64,000 nucleotides of DNA from Vicinamibacteria bacterium (GTDB lineage: Bacteria > Acidobacteriota > Vicinamibacteria > Fen-336). A program made the position numbers and the translations under genes. Location: contig JBGPYB010000002.1 in NCBI GenBank assembly GCA_041493035.1, positions 29,087 to 93,086 on the forward strand. The letters are read 5' to 3'. The notes under the pieces were generated by a model. The model did not search any database. It was not told where the DNA came from and saw only the letters and a program-made list of their open reading frames with translations. This document shows positions 3,926 through 11,599 of the stretch, piece by piece. Position 1 is the stretch's first letter. Each line of letters starts with the position of its first letter.

Positions 3926-4972
3926 GTGAAAGCACGTTCGGAGATCACGCAATTCATCGCTGCTCACATCGCCGAGCAGCAGTCCGGTCTTGCCCGGATG
4001 GTCTCCGAGCGATTCGGAATCAGTCGACAGGCGGCGAATCGAAACATCGCGCGCATGGTGAAGTCTGGGCTCGTTCTTGCCCATGGCAAGACGCGTGGTC
4101 GGCAGTACCGGCTCGCGACCCTGGGTCGGGTGCATGAGACCTTGGCCATCACACCGGAGCTGCAGGAGGATCAGGTCTGGGAGCGCCGTGTGCTACCCCT
4201 GTTGCGCGACGCGCCCGAGAACGTGCGGGACATTTGCAGCTACGGCTTCACCGAGATGGTCAACAACGCGAAGGACCATTCGGGTTCGCCCACGCTACTC
4301 ATCTTGGCCGAGGTCACGGCGGACGGCGTCACGATGGTGGTGAGAGACGAGGGTGTCGGGATTTTCCGCAAGATCAAGGACGCTCTGCACCTGGAGGATG
4401 AGCGCCACGCGATCCTGGAGCTCACCAAGGGGAAGTTCACCACGGACCCGGAACGCCACACGGGCGAAGGCGTCTTCTTCGCGTCACGCATGTTCGACTC
4501 GTTTGGCATAGGGTCCGGGCGACTCGGCCTCCTTCACCGGCGCGACACCCAGGACTTCCTGAGCGAGGACCGGCCGGAACATGCTGGCACGACGGTGGTC
4601 ATGGAGGCAAAGTTCGTTTCACAACATACAGCGAAGGAGGTGTTCGACCGGTACTCGACCGAGCAGGACGACTACGCGTTCCAGCGAACCCGCATCGTGG
4701 TCGCTTTGGCGGAGATCGAAGGCACGAAGCTCGTCTCTCGTTCTCAGGCCAAGCGAATCCTCGCCCGGCTCGATCGGTTCAAGGAGGTGATCCTCGACTT
4801 CAAGCGGGTCGAGAGCGTCGGACCCGCCTTCGCCGACGAGATGTTCCGCGTATACAGGTGTCAGCACCCGCAGGTGAACCTGATCCCGACCGAGGCCAAT
4901 GAAGAAGTGCAGAGGATGATCCGGCGCGCAGAGGCAGCCAGACAAACCATGATTCCCGCCCCGGGCTCTTGA
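3926..4972 (+). CDS. One-component regulator: N-terminal winged HTH + GHKL/HATPase_c (RsbW-like) domain + C-terminal STAS-like DUF4325 domain
   Basis: GTG start. The HTH segment is LARMVSERFGISRQAANRNIARMVKSGLV. The GHKL ATP-binding motifs are NNAKDHSG and VRDEGVGI ... TGEGVFFASR. The C-terminus (LDFKRVESVGPAFADEMFRVY) fits the STAS-like DUF4325 domain. Confidence 0.7.
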   Translation: MKARSEITQFIAAHIAEQQSGLARMVSERFGISRQAANRNIARMVKSGLVLAHGKTRGRQYRLATLGRVHETLAITPELQEDQVWERRVLPLLRDAPENVRDICSYGFTEMVNNAKDHSGSPTLLILAEVTADGVTMVVRDEGVGIFRKIKDALHLEDERHAILELTKGKFTTDPERHTGEGVFFASRMFDSFGIGSGRLGLLHRRDTQDFLSEDRPEHAGTTVVMEAKFVSQHTAKEVFDRYSTEQDDYAFQRTRIVVALAEIEGTKLVSRSQAKRILARLDRFKEVILDFKRVESVGPAFADEMFRVYRCQHPQVNLIPTEANEEVQRMIRRAEAARQTMIPAPGS

Positions 4973-5022: not shown

Positions 5023-6177
5023 ATGCCCTTCTACCACCAGCTCGGCCGTGTCCCACCGAAGCGCCACGTGGTGCTTCGCACGGCGGACGGGGCGCTATGC
5101 TTCGAGGAGCTGGTCGGGAACAAGGGTTTCACCGGGCCGTCGTCGCTGCTCTACCACCTCCGGCTTCCGACGGCCGTCAAGAGCGTGCGCCTCTTCCGAG
5201 ACCTCGCGTGGGCGCGGGAGGAGGACCAGACGCTGCGCCACCGGCACTTTCGGACGGCTTCCCTCGAGACGGGGCCGAGTGCCGTTCTCGACCGCGTGCC
5301 TTTGCTCTACAACGACGACGTCGCCCTGGAGATGGTGAGGCCGCGGCAGGAGGACGAGTTCTTCTACAGGAACGGCCAGGGAGACGAGGTCGTCTTCGTG
5401 ACCGAAGGCGAGGGGGTTCTCGAGTCGCCCTTCGGCGTGGTCGCGTTCCAGTCGGGCGACTACGTCGTGATTCCCCGCGGGGTGCTTCATCGCTACCGTC
5501 TCGCCCCCTGCCCCCAGCGCTTTCTCGTGATCGAGAGCCGCGGCGATGTGCGCACGCCGAAGCGATATCGGAACGAGCACGGTCAGATGCTGGAAGGCGC
5601 GCCTTACTCGGAGCGGGATTTCCGGCGTCCGGAGAAGCTCGAGACCCGCGACGAGGCCGGAGAATTCCGGGTCCTCGTCAAGGCCGCGAACCGCATCACG
5701 GAGATCATCATGGCTCACCATCCCTTCGACGTGGTGGGCTGGGACGGGTACTACTATCCGTGGGCCTTCAGCATTCACGACTTCGAGCCCAAGGTAGGCC
5801 GCGTCCACCTGCCCCCGCCCGTGCATCAGACGTTCGAGGGAGACGGCTTCGTGATCTGCTCCTTCTGTCCGCGTCCTTATGACTTCGATAAAGACGCGAT
5901 CCCCGCTCCCTACAGCCACCAGAACGTGATGTCCGACGAGGTCCTCTACTACGCCAACGCGGAGTTCATGAGCCGGAAAGGGATCGAGTATGGCTCCATC
6001 ACCCTCCACCCCGACGGCCTGCCCCACGGTCCGCAGCCAGGGAAGACGGAAGAGTCGATCGGCGCGAAGTGGACGGGCGAGCTGGCGGTGATGGTGGACA
6101 CGTTCAAGCCGCTCCGCGCGAGTCGGCAGGCTCTCGCCCTCGAGGATGCCGGCTATGCCTTGTCGTGGCTCGTATGA
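5023..6177 (+). CDS. hmgA: Homogentisate 1,2-dioxygenase
   Basis: Conserved HGD blocks are present, including HLPPPVHQTF, SFCPRPYDF and SHQNVMSDE. An ATG at 5023 has GGGGAG upstream. A TTG at 4969 is an alternative start. Confidence 0.85.
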   Translation: MPFYHQLGRVPPKRHVVLRTADGALCFEELVGNKGFTGPSSLLYHLRLPTAVKSVRLFRDLAWAREEDQTLRHRHFRTASLETGPSAVLDRVPLLYNDDVALEMVRPRQEDEFFYRNGQGDEVVFVTEGEGVLESPFGVVAFQSGDYVVIPRGVLHRYRLAPCPQRFLVIESRGDVRTPKRYRNEHGQMLEGAPYSERDFRRPEKLETRDEAGEFRVLVKAANRITEIIMAHHPFDVVGWDGYYYPWAFSIHDFEPKVGRVHLPPPVHQTFEGDGFVICSFCPRPYDFDKDAIPAPYSHQNVMSDEVLYYANAEFMSRKGIEYGSITLHPDGLPHGPQPGKTEESIGAKWTGELAVMVDTFKPLRASRQALALEDAGYALSWLV

Positions 6178-7067
6178 TCGCGGCCGCCACGTCATCGCTG
6201 CTCGCGTCCCTCGTCGACTACGCCGGGCTCTTTCCGCCGGCCGGTCTCGACACGGAGAAGGCGGTGGAGCAGTACGCGCGCCATCGCCGTTCCCCGGAGC
6301 GCTGGATTCTCGGACGCTTCGTCGTCCCGGCCACGCGCCTCGACGAGATGGCGACGGCGGCTGCGCCGTACCTGCCGACCCTTGGCGCGACGGATCCCTG
6401 GCGCGTGACGGCGCTCCTTGGGAATCGTCCCGCAGCCGAGGCCGCCCAGGCGGTGGCGTTTGGCCAACGCCTCGGCGGCCAGGCGGTCGTCGATTCGGTC
6501 GAGCTGAAAGGCTCGACGGTGGGTGAAATCGAGTCGGCCCTCGACGGACTGCCATCCGGCGTCACGGCCTACGTCGAGTTGCCGATCGACGCCGTTCTGC
6601 CGCCGCTTCTGCAAGCGCTCAAGGCCCGCGGCGCGCGGGCCAAGGTGCGCACCGGTGGGGTGACGCCCGAGGCGATACCGTCGCCGGAGCAGGTGGCCCG
6701 ATTTCTCGTTGCCTGCGGCGCAGCCAAAGTTCCGTTCAAGGCGACAGCCGGGCTCCATCATGCGGTGCGCTCCGTTCGGCCGCTCACCTATGCCTCCGAC
6801 AGCCCGCGAGCCACCATGCACGGCTTCCTGAACGTCTTCTCCGCCGCCGCCCTCGTCTGGCACGGCGCCTCCGTGGACGCGGTCGAGGCCGTGTTGCGAG
6901 AGGAGAATCCCGAGGCCTTTCGGATCGACGACGGCGGCCTGTCGGTGGGGGATCGCCACGTTTCCGCCGGCGATGTCGCCGCGTCGCGCGCCGAGCTTTC
7001 CATCGGGTTCGGCTCTTGCTCCTTCGCGGAGCCGATCGCCGACCTGAAGGCCCTCGGCATCTTGTGA
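6174..7067 (+). CDS. Uncharacterised protein translationally coupled between hmgA and fahA (297 aa)
   Basis: Its ATG at 6174 overlaps the hmgA stop (ATGA). Its stop overlaps the fahA GTG (GTGA). I recognise no family signature. The two Cys residues sit in VACGAAKVPF and GFGSCSF. Confidence 0.6.
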   Translation: MIAAATSSLLASLVDYAGLFPPAGLDTEKAVEQYARHRRSPERWILGRFVVPATRLDEMATAAAPYLPTLGATDPWRVTALLGNRPAAEAAQAVAFGQRLGGQAVVDSVELKGSTVGEIESALDGLPSGVTAYVELPIDAVLPPLLQALKARGARAKVRTGGVTPEAIPSPEQVARFLVACGAAKVPFKATAGLHHAVRSVRPLTYASDSPRATMHGFLNVFSAAALVWHGASVDAVEAVLREENPEAFRIDDGGLSVGDRHVSAGDVAASRAELSIGFGSCSFAEPIADLKALGIL

Positions 7068-8380
7068 TCGCCGCGATCGACGAGACCCACGCCCCTGCGC
7101 TCCGGAGCTGGGTCGAATCGGCCAACGATCCCGCCACTGACTTTCCCGTCCAGAACCTGTCGATGGGTGTCTTCCAGCGGAAAGGAAATGGAACGGCGGG
7201 CGTCGGCGTTGCCATCGGCGATCAGATCCTGGATCTCGCCGCCTGCGCCGGGCGCGGCCTCCTCCGCGGCCTGCCGACCGCGATCGAGGAGGCCTGTCGC
7301 GCCGCGTCCCTGAACGCCTTCATGGCGCAACCGGCCCGCCTGCGGAGCGCGCTCAGGAACCGGATCAGTCACCTGCTTCGTGCCGAGGGCGGGTTCGTGA
7401 CGGCGCGCAGCGAGGCCGCAGCGGTCCTTCTGCCGCAGGCCGAGGCTGAGATGCGCCTCCCGGCCGAGGTGGGGGACTACACCGACTTCTACGCGTCGAT
7501 CTTCCACGCGAGCAACGTCGGCGCCATGTTCCGCCCCGACAGCCCGCTGTTGCCGAACTACAAATGGGTGCCGATCGGCTATCACGGGCGCGCGTCGTCC
7601 CTCGTGGTCAGCGGCACGCCGGTGCGCCGTCCTTCGGGGCAGACCGAAGGGACCGACGGTGGGCCACCGTCGTTCGGCCCGACTCGCGCCCTCGACTACG
7701 AGCTGGAGATGGGAGCCTTCCTCGGGCCGGGAAACGACCTCGGAACGCCCATCCCTCTCCGTGAGGCCGCGGATCACCTCGTCGGCCTCTGCCTCCTGAA
7801 CGACTGGTCCGCTCGCGACATGCAGAAATGGGAGTACCAGCCCCTCGGTCCGTTCCTCGCGAAGAGCTTCGCCACGTCGCTCGGACCATGGGTGGTTACC
7901 CGCGAGGCGCTGGCGCCCTTCCGCGTCTCGGCCTTGTCGCGGCCGGCAGGAGACCCCGCTCCGCTTCCGTACCTGAGCGACGAGGAGGATGCAGCTCACG
8001 GGGGTTTCGACGTGCATCTCGAAGTGCGTATCGCATCGCGCGCCATGCGCGACGCGCGGCACCCGGCGATGACGGTGAGCCGTAGCCGTCTCCGCGACCT
8101 TTACTGGACGCTTGGCCAACTGCTCACTCATCACGCGAGCAACGGCTGCAACCTGCGCCCTGGGGACCTGATCGCCAGCGGCACCGTCTCCGGGCCGGAG
8201 ACGGAATCCCGCGGCTGCCTCCTGGAGCGGACGGGACGGGGGAACGAGCCGCTCACGCTCCCGACGGGGGAAAGGCGCCGCTTTCTCGAAGATGGCGACG
8301 AGGTGATCTTCCGCGGGCGCTGCGAGCGGGAGGGCTTCGTCTCGCTGGGCTTCGGCGAATGCCGCGGCGTGGTAGGTTAG
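7064..8380 (+). CDS. fahA: Fumarylacetoacetase (fumarylacetoacetate hydrolase)
   Basis: The N-terminal domain carries FPVQNLSMGVF. The FAH core carries DYTDFYASIFHASNVG, LGPFLAKSFATS, and a Ca/Mg-binding region. Start at the GTG at 7064. Confidence 0.85.
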   Translation: MIAAIDETHAPALRSWVESANDPATDFPVQNLSMGVFQRKGNGTAGVGVAIGDQILDLAACAGRGLLRGLPTAIEEACRAASLNAFMAQPARLRSALRNRISHLLRAEGGFVTARSEAAAVLLPQAEAEMRLPAEVGDYTDFYASIFHASNVGAMFRPDSPLLPNYKWVPIGYHGRASSLVVSGTPVRRPSGQTEGTDGGPPSFGPTRALDYELEMGAFLGPGNDLGTPIPLREAADHLVGLCLLNDWSARDMQKWEYQPLGPFLAKSFATSLGPWVVTREALAPFRVSALSRPAGDPAPLPYLSDEEDAAHGGFDVHLEVRIASRAMRDARHPAMTVSRSRLRDLYWTLGQLLTHHASNGCNLRPGDLIASGTVSGPETESRGCLLERTGRGNEPLTLPTGERRRFLEDGDEVIFRGRCEREGFVSLGFGECRGVVG

Positions 8381-8395
8381 GGACCGGAGGGAGCC

Positions 8396-9544
8396 ATGCC
8401 GAAAGTCGAGTCCCTCGGGATCAAGCGGATCGAGTCGATCCACTACTACGTCCACGACCTGGAGCGGAGCCGGCGCTTCTACACCGGGACCATGGACTTC
8501 GCGGAGATCGGCGGCAGCTCCGAGACGATGACACGCGAGGGCCGCGAGCAGTCCGTGGTCTTCATGGCGGGGAACTGCGTCGTGACCTGCATCGCTCCTC
8601 GCGGAGAAGACGGCCGCGCCGCGCGCTACCTGCGGAAGCATCCGGACGGCGTCGGGACGCTGAACTTCGAGGTGGAGGACGCGGGGCGCGCCTTCGCTCT
8701 TCTGGAGAAGCGGGGCGGCACGCCCATCGGCGAGATCCACCGAGAGAAGGATGGGAGCGGCGAGATCGCCTTCTTCTCCATAGCGACCCCGTTCGGCGAC
8801 ACCACGTTCCGGTTCGTGGAGCGCCGCGGTTACCGGTCGCTCTTTCCCGGCTTCGAGTCCCTCGAAGCACCTCGGGGCGGCGCCAACGCCTTCGGCTTCG
8901 TCGGCTTCGACCACGTCACCTCCAACTTCCAGACCATGAGCCCGGCTCTGCTGTGGTTGGAACACGTCCTGGGTTTCGAGCGCTACTGGGAGGTGCAGTT
9001 CCACACCACCGATGTCGCCATCGACCAGTCCCACGGCTCGGGCCTCAGGTCGGTGGTGATGTGGGACCCGGCTTCGGGGGTGAAGTTCGCCAACAACGAG
9101 CCGTGGCGGCCGTTCTTCAAGGACTCGCAGATCAACGTCTTCAACGAGCAGCACCGAGGCGACGGCGTCCAGCACCTGGCCATCGGCGTCAAGGACATCG
9201 TGTCGTGCGTCCGCGGCCTCCGGGTACGCGGTCTAGAGTTCATGCCGACGCCCGGGACGTACTACGACGCCCTCTCGGCTCGGCTCCAGACCATGGGCGT
9301 CGGCTCCATCGACGAGGACATCGAGCTCCTGAGGTCCCTCGAAATCCTGGTCGACGGCGACCGGGAGCACTCGTATCTTCTCCAGATCTTCCTGAAGGAG
9401 GCGGCCGGCCTCTATCGCGAGCCCGAAGCCGGGCCCTTCTTCTACGAAATAATCCAGCGCAAAGGGGACGAAGGATTCGGCGCCGGGAACTTCCGCGCCT
9501 TGTTCGAGTCCATCGAGCGCATGCAGCAAGGGGTGAAAGCATGA
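8396..9544 (+). CDS. hppD: 4-hydroxyphenylpyruvate dioxygenase
   Basis: The VOC-fold tandem carries FDHVTSN, QHLAIGVKDI, and the C-terminal EIIQRKGDEGFGAGNFRALFESIE typical of HPPD. Confidence 0.9.
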   Translation: MPKVESLGIKRIESIHYYVHDLERSRRFYTGTMDFAEIGGSSETMTREGREQSVVFMAGNCVVTCIAPRGEDGRAARYLRKHPDGVGTLNFEVEDAGRAFALLEKRGGTPIGEIHREKDGSGEIAFFSIATPFGDTTFRFVERRGYRSLFPGFESLEAPRGGANAFGFVGFDHVTSNFQTMSPALLWLEHVLGFERYWEVQFHTTDVAIDQSHGSGLRSVVMWDPASGVKFANNEPWRPFFKDSQINVFNEQHRGDGVQHLAIGVKDIVSCVRGLRVRGLEFMPTPGTYYDALSARLQTMGVGSIDEDIELLRSLEILVDGDREHSYLLQIFLKEAAGLYREPEAGPFFYEIIQRKGDEGFGAGNFRALFESIERMQQGVKA

Positions 9545-10089
9545 TGATGCGCCGCGTACTCGTCTCTTCCGCGGTTGTGGCGGCCTTCGCCACGTCGGTC
9601 TTTTCGGGAGATGCCATGTCCTTCTATTCGCTCAAGACGACCACGCTCTCGGGGAAGCCGGCCGACCTCGGCGACTATTCCGGCAAGGTCACTCTCGTCG
9701 TCAACGTGGCGAGCCAGTGCGGATTCACCCCGCAGTACAAGGGGCTCGAGGCCCTCCACCAGGAGTTGGCACCCAAGGGGTTTTCGGTCCTCGGCTTTCC
9801 GAGCAACGAGTTCGGAGGACAAGAGCCGGGGAGCGCCGAGGAAATCCAGACCTTCTGCCAGAAGAACTACGGTGTGACGTTCCCGATGTTCTCGAAGCTC
9901 GTCACGAAGCCGGGTTCGGACCAGTCGCCCATCTACGCGCTTCTGACGAAGGCCGGCGACGTCCCCTCGTGGAACTTCTGCAAATACCTGGTCGGCAAGG
10001 ACGGCAAGGTGATCGCTTTCTTCCCGAGCAAGGTCACGCCTGAGTCGAAGGAACTGCGCGACGCCATCACGGCTGCCCTCGGGAGGTAG
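9541..10089 (+). CDS. gpx: Glutathione peroxidase, with signal peptide
   Basis: Its ATGATGATG start overlaps the hppD stop. The conserved motifs are VNVASQCGFT and LGFPSNEFGGQEP ... WNFCKYLV. Confidence 0.9.
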   Translation: MMMRRVLVSSAVVAAFATSVFSGDAMSFYSLKTTTLSGKPADLGDYSGKVTLVVNVASQCGFTPQYKGLEALHQELAPKGFSVLGFPSNEFGGQEPGSAEEIQTFCQKNYGVTFPMFSKLVTKPGSDQSPIYALLTKAGDVPSWNFCKYLVGKDGKVIAFFPSKVTPESKELRDAITAALGR

Positions 10090-10159: not shown

Positions 10160-11599
10160 ATGCGCCTGACCGGTTCGGCCCTGGGCACGCTCGCAGTCCT
10201 CTCTGCCGCCGTGGCCGCGGCTGCGCAGGATCCGGCGGCCCTCAAGAAGACCTGTGACAAGGGGAGCTTCCAGGACTGCTTCACCCTCGCTGGTCTCCAC
10301 CTCCAGGGGCAGGGCGTTCCCAAGGACGTGGCGAAAGCCACGTCCCTCTACAAGAAGGCGTGCAACGGGAACGATGCCCGGAGCTGTCTCGAGTTGGCAC
10401 GGCTGACCCGCGGTGGTGAAGCGGGCGCCAAGGACGCGGCGGGCGCCGTCAAGCTCTTCGACAAGGCCTGTACCCTCGGCAGCGCCGAAGCCTGCGGCCA
10501 GATGGGTGTCCTCTACCAGACCGGCCAAGACGTGGCGAAGGACATGGCTCGCGCCGCCGAGTTCTATGGGCGCGCCTGCGAAGGGAACTTGGCGAAGAGT
10601 TGCCTGGCTCTCGGCGAGATGCATCGGCAGGGACGGGGCGTTCCGCAAGACGTCAATCGCGGGGCCGCGCTGTTCAAGAAGGCCTGCGACGGAGGAGAAG
10701 CCGATGGCTGCGGCGCACTCGGGTTCGCGTTTCGATCCGGGGAGGGGGCCGTCAAGGACCTCCCCCACGCGGCCGCCCTCTTCAAGCAAGCCTGCGGAGC
10801 GGGCTCGGCCGTGGGTTGCTACGGGCAGGGCCTTTCCCAGGAGAAGGGCGACGGCATGACACGGGATCTCGCCGCTGCTTTCGCGTCCTTCGGCAAGGCG
10901 TGCGAGGCTGGGGAGCCCCGGGCGTGTCACAGCGTCGCTCTCATGATGCGCGACGGCACGACGGTTCCCAAGGACGCCGCCAAGGCCGCCGAGTTCTTCC
11001 AGAAGGCGTGCGACGGCGGCGCGGGGCAAGCGTGCCACGACTTGGGCGTCTTCGCCGAGACAGGGCGCGGGATGCGACGGGACCTGGCGCGCGCGGCCAC
11101 GCTCTACGGTCAGGCCTGCTCGGGGGGCGACATGCGCGGCTGCCTGAGGCTGGGCCTCCTGTACAACGGCCGCGTGGGCATCGAGGCCGAACCCGGGCGT
11201 GCCGTGGCTCTCTTCAAGCAGGCGTGCGACGGCGGCGAGATCGGCGGCTGCGCCAAGCTCGCTCCGATGTACGAAAACGCCGAGGCCCCGCTCACCCGTG
11301 ATCTCGTCCAGGCTGGGGCCCTTTACAAGAGGGCCTGCGATTCGGGTCTCGCCGCCGAGTGCTACAGCCTCGGCCGCCTCGTGGCACGCGGCGACGGCAT
11401 GTCGGCCGATCTCGCGAAGGCAGCGGGTTTCTACAAGCAGGCCTGCGAAGGCGGCTCTGCTCCCGGATGCTACGAACTCGGCCTGCTGACCCAGAGCGGC
11501 CAGGGGGTCGCCCGCGATCGTGACGGCTCGCGCTCTCTCTTTCAGAAGGCCTGCGACGCCGGCGACAAACGGGGCTGCGAGAAGGTCAAGTACCGGTAG
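10160..11599 (+). CDS. Secreted Sel1-like repeat (SLR) protein with about 12 repeats
   Basis: A signal peptide is followed by roughly 36-aa units repeating the pattern KDxxKAxxLYKKACDGGxxxGC throughout. Confidence 0.85.
   Translation: MRLTGSALGTLAVLSAAVAAAAQDPAALKKTCDKGSFQDCFTLAGLHLQGQGVPKDVAKATSLYKKACNGNDARSCLELARLTRGGEAGAKDAAGAVKLFDKACTLGSAEACGQMGVLYQTGQDVAKDMARAAEFYGRACEGNLAKSCLALGEMHRQGRGVPQDVNRGAALFKKACDGGEADGCGALGFAFRSGEGAVKDLPHAAALFKQACGAGSAVGCYGQGLSQEKGDGMTRDLAAAFASFGKACEAGEPRACHSVALMMRDGTTVPKDAAKAAEFFQKACDGGAGQACHDLGVFAETGRGMRRDLARAATLYGQACSGGDMRGCLRLGLLYNGRVGIEAEPGRAVALFKQACDGGEIGGCAKLAPMYENAEAPLTRDLVQAGALYKRACDSGLAAECYSLGRLVARGDGMSADLAKAAGFYKQACEGGSAPGCYELGLLTQSGQGVARDRDGSRSLFQKACDAGDKRGCEKVKYR

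Follow-up and report, generated by a model that had tools for sequence, protein, structure and literature searches.

The homogentisate route of tyrosine and phenylalanine breakdown is textbook biochemistry, and its cis-trans isomerisation step has been assigned only where a glutathione-dependent zeta-class glutathione S-transferase (GST) exists. The stretch of DNA analysed here, 64,000 nucleotides of contig JBGPYB010000002.1 from a Vicinamibacteria bacterium (hereafter the window), raises the question of which protein carries out this step when the genes for homogentisate 1,2-dioxygenase (HGD; hmgA) and fumarylacetoacetase (FAH; fahA) are separated by a single uncharacterised gene. This gene, referred to here as X, lies at 6174..7067 on the + strand (ATG at 6174, TGA at 7065-7067) and encodes a predicted triosephosphate isomerase (TIM) barrel protein of 297 amino acids (aa). 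An earlier note on this DNA had proposed that X sits at the place of the missing isomerase and is not a GST, and this reading is supported by the analysis. It is almost certain that X is functionally tied to FAH and to the homogentisate pathway, and we infer, with a probability of about 0.65, that it is a maleylacetoacetate isomerase, non-homologous to the zeta-class GST/MaiA enzymes and probably independent of glutathione. The reaction and the operon are known, and what is new is an unannotated, structurally unrelated enzyme family.

Glutathione-independent homogentisate pathways were reportedly described biochemically in the 1970s and 80s, with no gene found; the older papers are those of Crawford and Frick (1977) and of Hagedorn and Chapman (1985). 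A full-text search of the literature returned no description of a non-GST maleylacetoacetate isomerase, and the GapMind catabolism paper does not mention the isomerase step. For Gram-positive bacteria the isomerase gene has been explicitly reported as unidentifiable (PMC6193087), and a 2018 paper on B. thuringiensis states that this gene cannot be identified and may differ from those known. A 2024 Streptomyces paper places a gene of the mycothiol-dependent maleylpyruvate isomerase family among the l-tyrosine metabolism genes, with a locus tag far from those of fahA and hmgA.

Linkage of X to fahA

It is clear that X is a genuine gene, coupled in translation to its neighbours in a block of five, hmgA-X-fahA-hppD-gpx. 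The ATGA and GTGA joins between hmgA, the 297-aa gene and fahA, and the hppD and gpx that follow them, had been claimed by the earlier note and are seen in the sequence and in the domain matches. The start of X overlaps the stop of hmgA, which ends at 6177, in the ATGA of CTCGTATGATCGCG (also given as GTATGATC), and at the other end the GTG with which fahA begins at 7064 overlaps the stop of X in the GTGA of ATCTTGTGATCGCC (also given as TTGTGATC). Along the block, the intergenic gaps are -4, -4, +15 and -4 bp. A promoter scan found no promoter-like sites within it, and its two terminator-like matches are no more than the chance level obtained from shuffles. The GC content at third codon positions (GC3) is 0.84 for X and 0.84-0.89 for the neighbouring genes. 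An overlapping antisense open reading frame (ORF; 6192-6959), preferred by a GC3-based gene caller, was considered as the gene and was overruled by its GC3 of 0.75 against 0.84 and by homology. Given the neighbour-like GC3, the thousands of homologues and an AlphaFold2 model with a pLDDT (predicted local distance difference test) of 95.6, X is a real gene and not a chance ORF. The fahA that follows (7064..8380, +; 438 aa) matches Pfam FAA_hydrolase_N and FAA_hydrolase, and reaches 537 bits on TIGR01266 against a cutoff of 375.

The neighbourhood of X was compared across the best 80 of at least 595 relatives, which were obtained by searching a set of genomes, one for each GTDB species, with two conserved peptides, one of them being F-K189-A-T191-A-G-L-H195-H196. 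These loci belong to Acidobacteriota (about 31), Gemmatimonadota (24), Planctomycetota (16), Bacteroidota (3), Cyanobacteria (2), Chloroflexota, Latescibacteria and others. Downstream of X, and on the same strand, fahA is found in 67 of the 80, with a gap of at most 60 bp in 47 of them, and in 3 of the 13 loci that lack a downstream fahA the contig ends within 100 bp of X. When the ORFs neighbouring X were clustered all against all, fahA came foremost, followed by hmgA (22 loci) and hppD (17), no other neighbour being present in more than 10 loci. The X family adjoins fahA, and lies upstream of it, in at least ten bacterial phyla.

Two loci have larger gaps between X and fahA. One of these holds a 62-aa ORF that is HicB-like by eye (L047:2381-3292), and the other holds a 229-aa ORF together with ORFs of 91 and 87 aa that by eye resemble a YefM/YoeB toxin-antitoxin pair (L079:6883-8265). 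Given that these gaps are inserted toxin-antitoxin-like cassettes, the pairing of X with fahA survives insertions.

A second set of 80 metagenome loci was selected with the Acinetobacter FahA as reference, so that the sample was not chosen on X. The sequence upstream of fahA was long enough to reveal X in 60 of these loci. In 19 of the 80 X immediately precedes fahA, the identical 19 being recovered by a profile hidden Markov model (HMM), and in 3 maiA immediately follows fahA, which means that in this sample X stands beside fahA six times as often as maiA. None of the 80 loci carries both, and 58 carry neither; in 20 of these fahA adjoins a canonical hmgA. The set revealed no further candidate isomerase that recurs next to fahA. 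An ORF of about 400 aa that has no Pfam match lies directly downstream of fahA in 9 loci without X or maiA (L143:9346-10554 and 8 others, cluster 13), and this could be another unannotated component of the pathway.

X never co-occurs locally with maiA. Across 1.07 Mb, comprising the window and 91 X-bearing loci, neither MaiA nor GSTZ1 gave a match at E <= 1e-3. The earlier statement that no GST-fold isomerase is present in the window holds for the zeta class, given that tblastn with human GSTZ1 gave a best E of 9 and Acinetobacter MaiA gave no match at E <= 1e-3, other GST classes not having been searched window-wide. As a check on the probe, genuine GSTZ1 matches GST_N at 1e-16 to 1e-18 in the same domain search that was applied to X.

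The fusion of two proteins is classic evidence of consecutive or coupled function, and X was found fused to FAH twice. The protein P0271 (771 aa) consists of X, a short linker and a complete fumarylacetoacetase in one uninterrupted frame, its FAH half scoring 558.8 bits on TIGR01266, and it is present in two independent assemblies, a 248-kb NCBI/ENA contig and a Logan assembly. A second in-frame fusion of X to FAH, P0153, shares only 49% identity with P0271, and its linker is long, acidic and rich in proline; its FAH part is interrupted only by a scaffold gap and continues past it. In one locus, the full-length fusion gene (L084:7769-9875) is not beside hmgA and is preceded by a cupin gene with a weak CDO_I match, a 138-aa ORF of no assigned function and a type III polyketide synthase, a context that leaves room for another origin of the diketo-acid substrate in the organism concerned. 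A further protein, P0125 (545 aa), has a full X domain that is preceded on its N-terminal side by a CAAX protease domain of the Rce1-like kind (PF02517, residues 67-155); it may be a genuine fusion or a merged gene call, and it was judged uninformative.

The association of X with fahA extends to plasmids and to cultured organisms. By tblastn, X is present on 24 PLSDB replicons, from Streptomyces (11), Priestia (6), Pseudonocardia, Rhodococcus, Nonomuraea, Tsukamurella and Kovacikia, and it abuts fahA in all five records that have coordinates in both searches. In the annotated layout of Priestia megaterium the gene order is lrp, hppD, X, fahA, aminotransferase, HGD and amino-acid permease. A Streptomyces plasmid and S. 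albidoflavus assemblies have the order iclR, HGD, X, fahA and coenzyme A (CoA)-transferase A/B, with 4-bp overlaps as in the window. The X-fahA layout is annotated in Nocardia and is also found in Kovacikia, and a metagenome-assembled genome labelled Deltaproteobacteria has X, fahA, an acetoacetate-CoA-ligase-like gene, marR, hppD and hmgA. In the Priestia, Streptomyces and Deltaproteobacteria-labelled operons all steps from 4-hydroxyphenylpyruvate or homogentisate to fumarate and activated acetoacetate are assigned save the cis-trans isomerisation, X being the only gene left without an assignment. Acinetobacter, which served as a control, has fahA-maiA, with maiA in the corresponding slot beside fahA, and Ralstonia has hmgA-fahA with no adjoining isomerase. 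The adjacency to fahA across phyla, the two FAH fusions, the operons that are complete save for the isomerase and the absence of maiA near X all bear out the place that X had been given in the earlier note.

Fold, conserved residues and proposed reaction

No match to X was found in Pfam, NCBIfam or PDB sequences, either with the single sequence or with a profile, and the same holds for the divergent X subfamilies. HMM and structure-prediction searches therefore brought up no clear homology to an unrelated characterised enzyme. A word-indexed protein search returned at least 8,000 candidate relatives, and an exhaustive profile search that covered 1.84 billion representatives returned 5,814 clusters at 50% identity with E <= 1e-3, and 2,771 with E <= 1e-30. 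The names given to the relatives by NCBI, UniRef and JGI are all 'hypothetical' or 'uncharacterized', including those from many cultured Streptomyces, Nocardia, Janibacter and Nocardioides. The AlphaFold2 model of X, which has a predicted template modelling (TM) score of 0.93, is a (beta/alpha)8 TIM barrel. Comparison of this model with the PDB by Foldseek gave generic TIM-barrel matches only (TM 0.3-0.5). The nearest solved folds are those of class I aldolases.

Conservation was assessed in an alignment of 57 sequences that covers all X subfamilies, with identity down to 28%. The polar residues D15, E110, E135, K157, R159, K189, T191, H195, H196, N220 and C282 are invariant in it, S283, E286 and R199 are almost invariant, and R48 and R272 are highly but not universally conserved. 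Two cysteines had been singled out beforehand, in the peptides VACGAAKVPF and GFGSCSF. Both peptides are present, but C282 is the sole conserved cysteine of X and is invariant in alignments A1, A2 and A4, whereas C181 varies and, like H216, is not conserved.

Three motifs contain candidate catalytic residues. The first, K157-V-R159-T-G-G (6642..6659, +), lies on predicted strand beta-6, and its K157 is the candidate Schiff-base or enolate-stabilising lysine; neither K157 nor R159 varies in alignments A1, A2 and A4. The second, F-K189-A-T191-A-G-L-H195-H196 (6735..6761, +), covers predicted strand beta-7 and the loop that follows. The third, F-G-S-C282-S-F (7008..7025, +), comes just after the last predicted beta-strand (residues 276-281), and its C282 is the candidate nucleophile. 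The secondary structure derived from the model by DSSP assigns D15, R48, E110 and E135 to strands 1, 2, 4 and 5, respectively, K157 and R159 to strand 6, and K189 and T191 to strand 7, with H195 and H196 just past strand 7 and C282 directly after the final strand. As modelled, this placement is the usual active-site layout of TIM barrels and that of an enzyme-like barrel.

In all isomerases of this type known to us, a thiol or thiolate adds to the activated double bond, the bond rotates and the thiol is eliminated. The thiol is glutathione in the zeta-class GSTs, mycothiol or cysteine in the DinB-type enzymes, and the enzyme's own cysteine in maleate isomerase. In the reaction proposed for X, 4-maleylacetoacetate, the product of HmgA, would be converted to 4-fumarylacetoacetate, the substrate of the FahA that is encoded immediately downstream. 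The thiolate of C282 would undergo Michael addition to C2 of the enone, followed by rotation about the C2-C3 bond and elimination of the thiolate, all of which would be cofactor-independent. K157 on beta-6 and K189 on beta-7 might act as in a class I aldolase, through an iminium at the C4 carbonyl, or might stabilise the enolate. The two carboxylates of the substrate could be bound by R159 and by R48/R272, and H195/H196, D15, E110 and E135 may serve as acid/base residues or metal ligands.

Given that X has one invariant cysteine, placed at the mouth of the predicted barrel, and that its hosts have different low-molecular-weight thiols, an enzyme-borne nucleophile, C282, would be the simplest model. 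Mycothiol is used by Actinomycetota, bacillithiol by Bacillota and glutathione by Cyanobacteria, and the presence of X in lineages that use mycothiol or bacillithiol makes a dependence on glutathione unlikely. The specific mechanism with cysteine and lysines is put forward tentatively. It is likewise a conjecture, at odds well below even, that X represents a new class of cofactor-independent TIM-barrel cis-trans isomerases, combining covalent catalysis by C282 with a class-I-aldolase-like lysine pair that acts as an iminium/enolate 'electron sink', and that this class prevails over GST-zeta in environmental bacteria outside the classic proteobacterial models.

Weighing the proposed isomerase against its rivals

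Several points weigh against the assignment of X as the isomerase. The case for it is made of guilt by association and of a pathway hole, and the closeness of C282 to K157 and K189 is deduced from strand positions alone in the predicted structure. In about ten loci, mostly from Phycisphaerales of the Planctomycetota, X has no fahA within 6 kb and has unrelated neighbours. The search for maiA covered the 64-kb window and, around the other X genes, at most 10 kb of flanking sequence, and with only three maiA-adjacent loci and one plasmid the term 'mutually exclusive' stands on small numbers on the maiA side. Cyanobacteria carry X though they make glutathione. Moreover, X is not the only solution, given that B. 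thuringiensis is without maiA and, judging from its published three-gene operon, also without X.

The neighbours of X in the loci without fahA are a PD40 repeat protein, AXE1-like esterases, FIST, RNase III, a signal peptidase and an indigoidine-synthase-A-like protein, and they appear to point to no alternative function. In seven of the Phycisphaerales loci (L030, L033, L039, L045, L046, L053 and L054), X comes after genes for a PD40 beta-propeller and AXE1-like esterases, and the next gene, which is convergent, encodes a FIST-domain protein; in other Phycisphaerales loci fahA lies 50-800 bp downstream of X.

The alternative that survives best is a variant of the isomerase itself, overlapping with the reading given above, in which X would use a diffusible thiol, namely mycothiol, bacillithiol, cysteine or glutathione according to the host. 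To our knowledge, no maleylpyruvate or maleylacetoacetate isomerase has been characterised that does without an external thiol, and a gene of the Gpx family is co-transcribed in the window. Nonetheless, a single closely conserved family is found across hosts with differing thiols, and the invariant cysteine is predicted to lie at the end of a barrel strand, where an enzyme-borne nucleophile, as in maleate isomerase, is the simpler explanation. Dependence on a diffusible thiol is for these reasons held to be possible but unlikely.

Synteny and fusion show a functional link to FAH, and do not fix the type of reaction. X could therefore be an enzyme of the FAH-linked pathway with another task, such as the keto-enol tautomerisation of maleyl- or fumarylacetoacetate, the handling of side products (maleylacetone, succinylacetoacetate) or a reaction of the aldolase/decarboxylase type, and its nearest solved folds and its invariant lysines on beta-6 and beta-7 are in line with this. 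Such a role would, however, leave the obligatory isomerase step empty in otherwise complete operons, and we know of no enzyme that is needed for beta-diketone tautomerisation in the homogentisate pathway. The CoA transferase or CoA-ligase-like gene that comes after fahA indicates that acetoacetate is kept and activated, which argues against a decarboxylase. Another reaction for X is thus considered quite unlikely, and the isomerase remains the preferred reading.

It is also conceivable that FahA splits maleylacetoacetate directly into maleate and acetoacetate, with X acting after FAH as a maleate-to-fumarate isomerase or as a hydratase, given that the order of the reactions is fixed neither by gene order nor by the orientation of the fusions and that the known cofactor-free maleate isomerase also employs an enzyme cysteine. 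The FahA proteins beside X are, however, equivalog-level fumarylacetoacetases (537 and 559 bits against the cutoff of 375) and are 45-60% identical to proteobacterial FahAs, among which that of Acinetobacter adjoins a canonical maiA. A changed substrate geometry is therefore not indicated, and this order of reactions is very improbable. The weakest alternative, by which X would be a non-catalytic accessory or regulatory factor like the Aspergillus HmgX that is needed for HppD function, can be set aside as the least probable of all, since HmgX, itself an unannotated member of a cluster for tyrosine degradation and indispensable when tyrosine is the growth substrate (PMC3203155), is a 256-aa protein of Ascomycota only that is paired with hppD and stands alongside MaiA, whereas X tracks fahA (67/80 loci) far above hppD (17/80), is fused to FAH and is predicted to be a TIM barrel whose catalytic face carries some eleven invariant polar residues.

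Neighbouring genes and known systems

The hmgA of the window (5023..6177, +) encodes a short-form homogentisate 1,2-dioxygenase of 384 aa, with Pfam matches to HgmA_N (E = 1e-10) and HgmA_C (E = 0.005). The mechanical ORF begins with TTG at 4969, and the ATG at 5023 is likely the true start, the public gene calls being of 384 aa. The protein is a divergent short form that scores 58.6 bits on TIGR01015 against a cutoff of 510, and it is 55% and 46% identical to the RefSeq homogentisate 1,2-dioxygenases of Priestia and Streptomyces, respectively, and 24% identical to the canonical HGD of Ralstonia. In the window, in Streptomyces and in five further loci, four acidobacterial and one from Brocadiaceae (L004-L007 and L043), the short form adjoins X directly, and in Priestia and L088 it belongs to the same cluster as X; a canonical long-form hmgA lies upstream in other X loci.

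Downstream of fahA, hppD (8396..9544, +) encodes a 4-hydroxyphenylpyruvate dioxygenase of 382 aa with Pfam Glyoxalase domains. Its score of 268.8 bits on TIGR01263 falls just under the cutoff of 277, and for this reason the call leans also on the operon context. The start of the gpx-family gene (9541..10089, +; 182 aa), which is annotated with PF00255 GSHPx in the public record of the same contig, overlaps the stop of hppD by 4 bp and makes it the final gene of the tightly packed block. Its coupling to hppD may provide protection from the oxidative stress of homogentisate auto-oxidation; a gpx-family gene alone is no proof of glutathione use by the organism. On its upstream side the operon is bordered by a gene for a 348-aa DUF4325 protein (3926-4972), and on its downstream side by one for a secreted-looking protein of 479 aa (10160-11599), which contains repeated 'A..LY..AC..G....C..LG' units that are Sel1-like by eye and has no Pfam match on record.

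If X is the isomerase, it would close a gap that has long stood in the pathway of Actinomycetota, Bacillota, Acidobacteriota, Gemmatimonadota, Planctomycetota, Bacteroidota, Cyanobacteria and others, and a 'dark' family of some 5,800 clusters (at 50% identity), which Pfam, NCBIfam and the PDB do not cover, would receive a function. Reconstructions of metabolism in which tyrosine catabolism counts as incomplete would be corrected, and the cis-trans isomerases would gain a new fold and probably a new catalytic strategy.

Among the known systems, HmgX of Aspergillus fumigatus resembles X in being an unannotated protein of a tyrosine-degradation cluster that is needed for tyrosine use (PMC3203155), and differs from it in being fungal and in being found beside hppD and tied to it, X being bacterial and tied to fahA. 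X was accordingly ruled out as an HmgX-type factor on context, the two being set apart by the description of HmgX and not by sequence.

The class I aldolases of the deoxyribose-phosphate aldolase (DERA)/DeoC family (PF01791) have the (beta/alpha)8 barrel fold in common with the model of X. In DERA, the Schiff-base lysine is on beta-6 and a second lysine is on beta-7, and in X the invariant K157 and K189 fall on the predicted strands beta-6 and beta-7 and might correspond to them. X has no Pfam DeoC match, and a profile search of PDB sequences gave no aldolase. Membership of the DeoC family was rejected, the hhalign comparison of the A1 profile with E. coli DeoC having a probability of 0.5%.

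The DinB/MDMPI maleylpyruvate isomerases have a DinB-like helical-bundle N-terminal domain with a metal-binding histidine triad (MDMPI_N/DinB_2), require both a metal and a diffusible thiol, and have maleylpyruvate as substrate. They comprise the mycothiol-dependent NCgl2918 type and the L-cysteine- or bacillithiol-dependent BagL type, and resemble X in offering Gram-positive bacteria a cis-trans step that is free of glutathione, by a chemistry like that predicted for X; a glutathione-independent gentisate pathway is described for Corynebacterium in the cited literature. X differs from them in lacking a Pfam match to the family, in its predicted alpha/beta barrel and in its link to fumarylacetoacetase and not to fumarylpyruvate hydrolase. 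Of the possibilities raised in the earlier note, a new type of isomerase fits these observations, while an analogue of the mycothiol-, bacillithiol- or Cys-dependent maleylpyruvate isomerases is at variance with the predicted fold.

Maleate cis-trans isomerase is the nearest mechanistic precedent for the proposed role of C282, given that it is cofactor-independent and that its own cysteine adds to the double bond. It has the fold of the Asp/Glu racemase superfamily and two catalytic cysteines, and it differs from X in fold and substrate, in that X has one invariant cysteine, and in the absence of sequence similarity in the Pfam and PDB searches.

MaiA/HmgC/GSTZ1 (TIGR01262) catalyses the step that is predicted for X, between HmgA and FahA, and holds the same slot beside fahA. 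The folds differ, with a thioredoxin-like GST fold on one side and a predicted TIM barrel on the other, and neither X nor five divergent homologues match GST_N, GST_C or TIGR01262 even at E = 1, in agreement with the earlier remark that the protein has no GST N-terminal motif. As in the bacterial homogentisate operons described so far, X is co-directional and tightly linked with hmgA and fahA across taxa.

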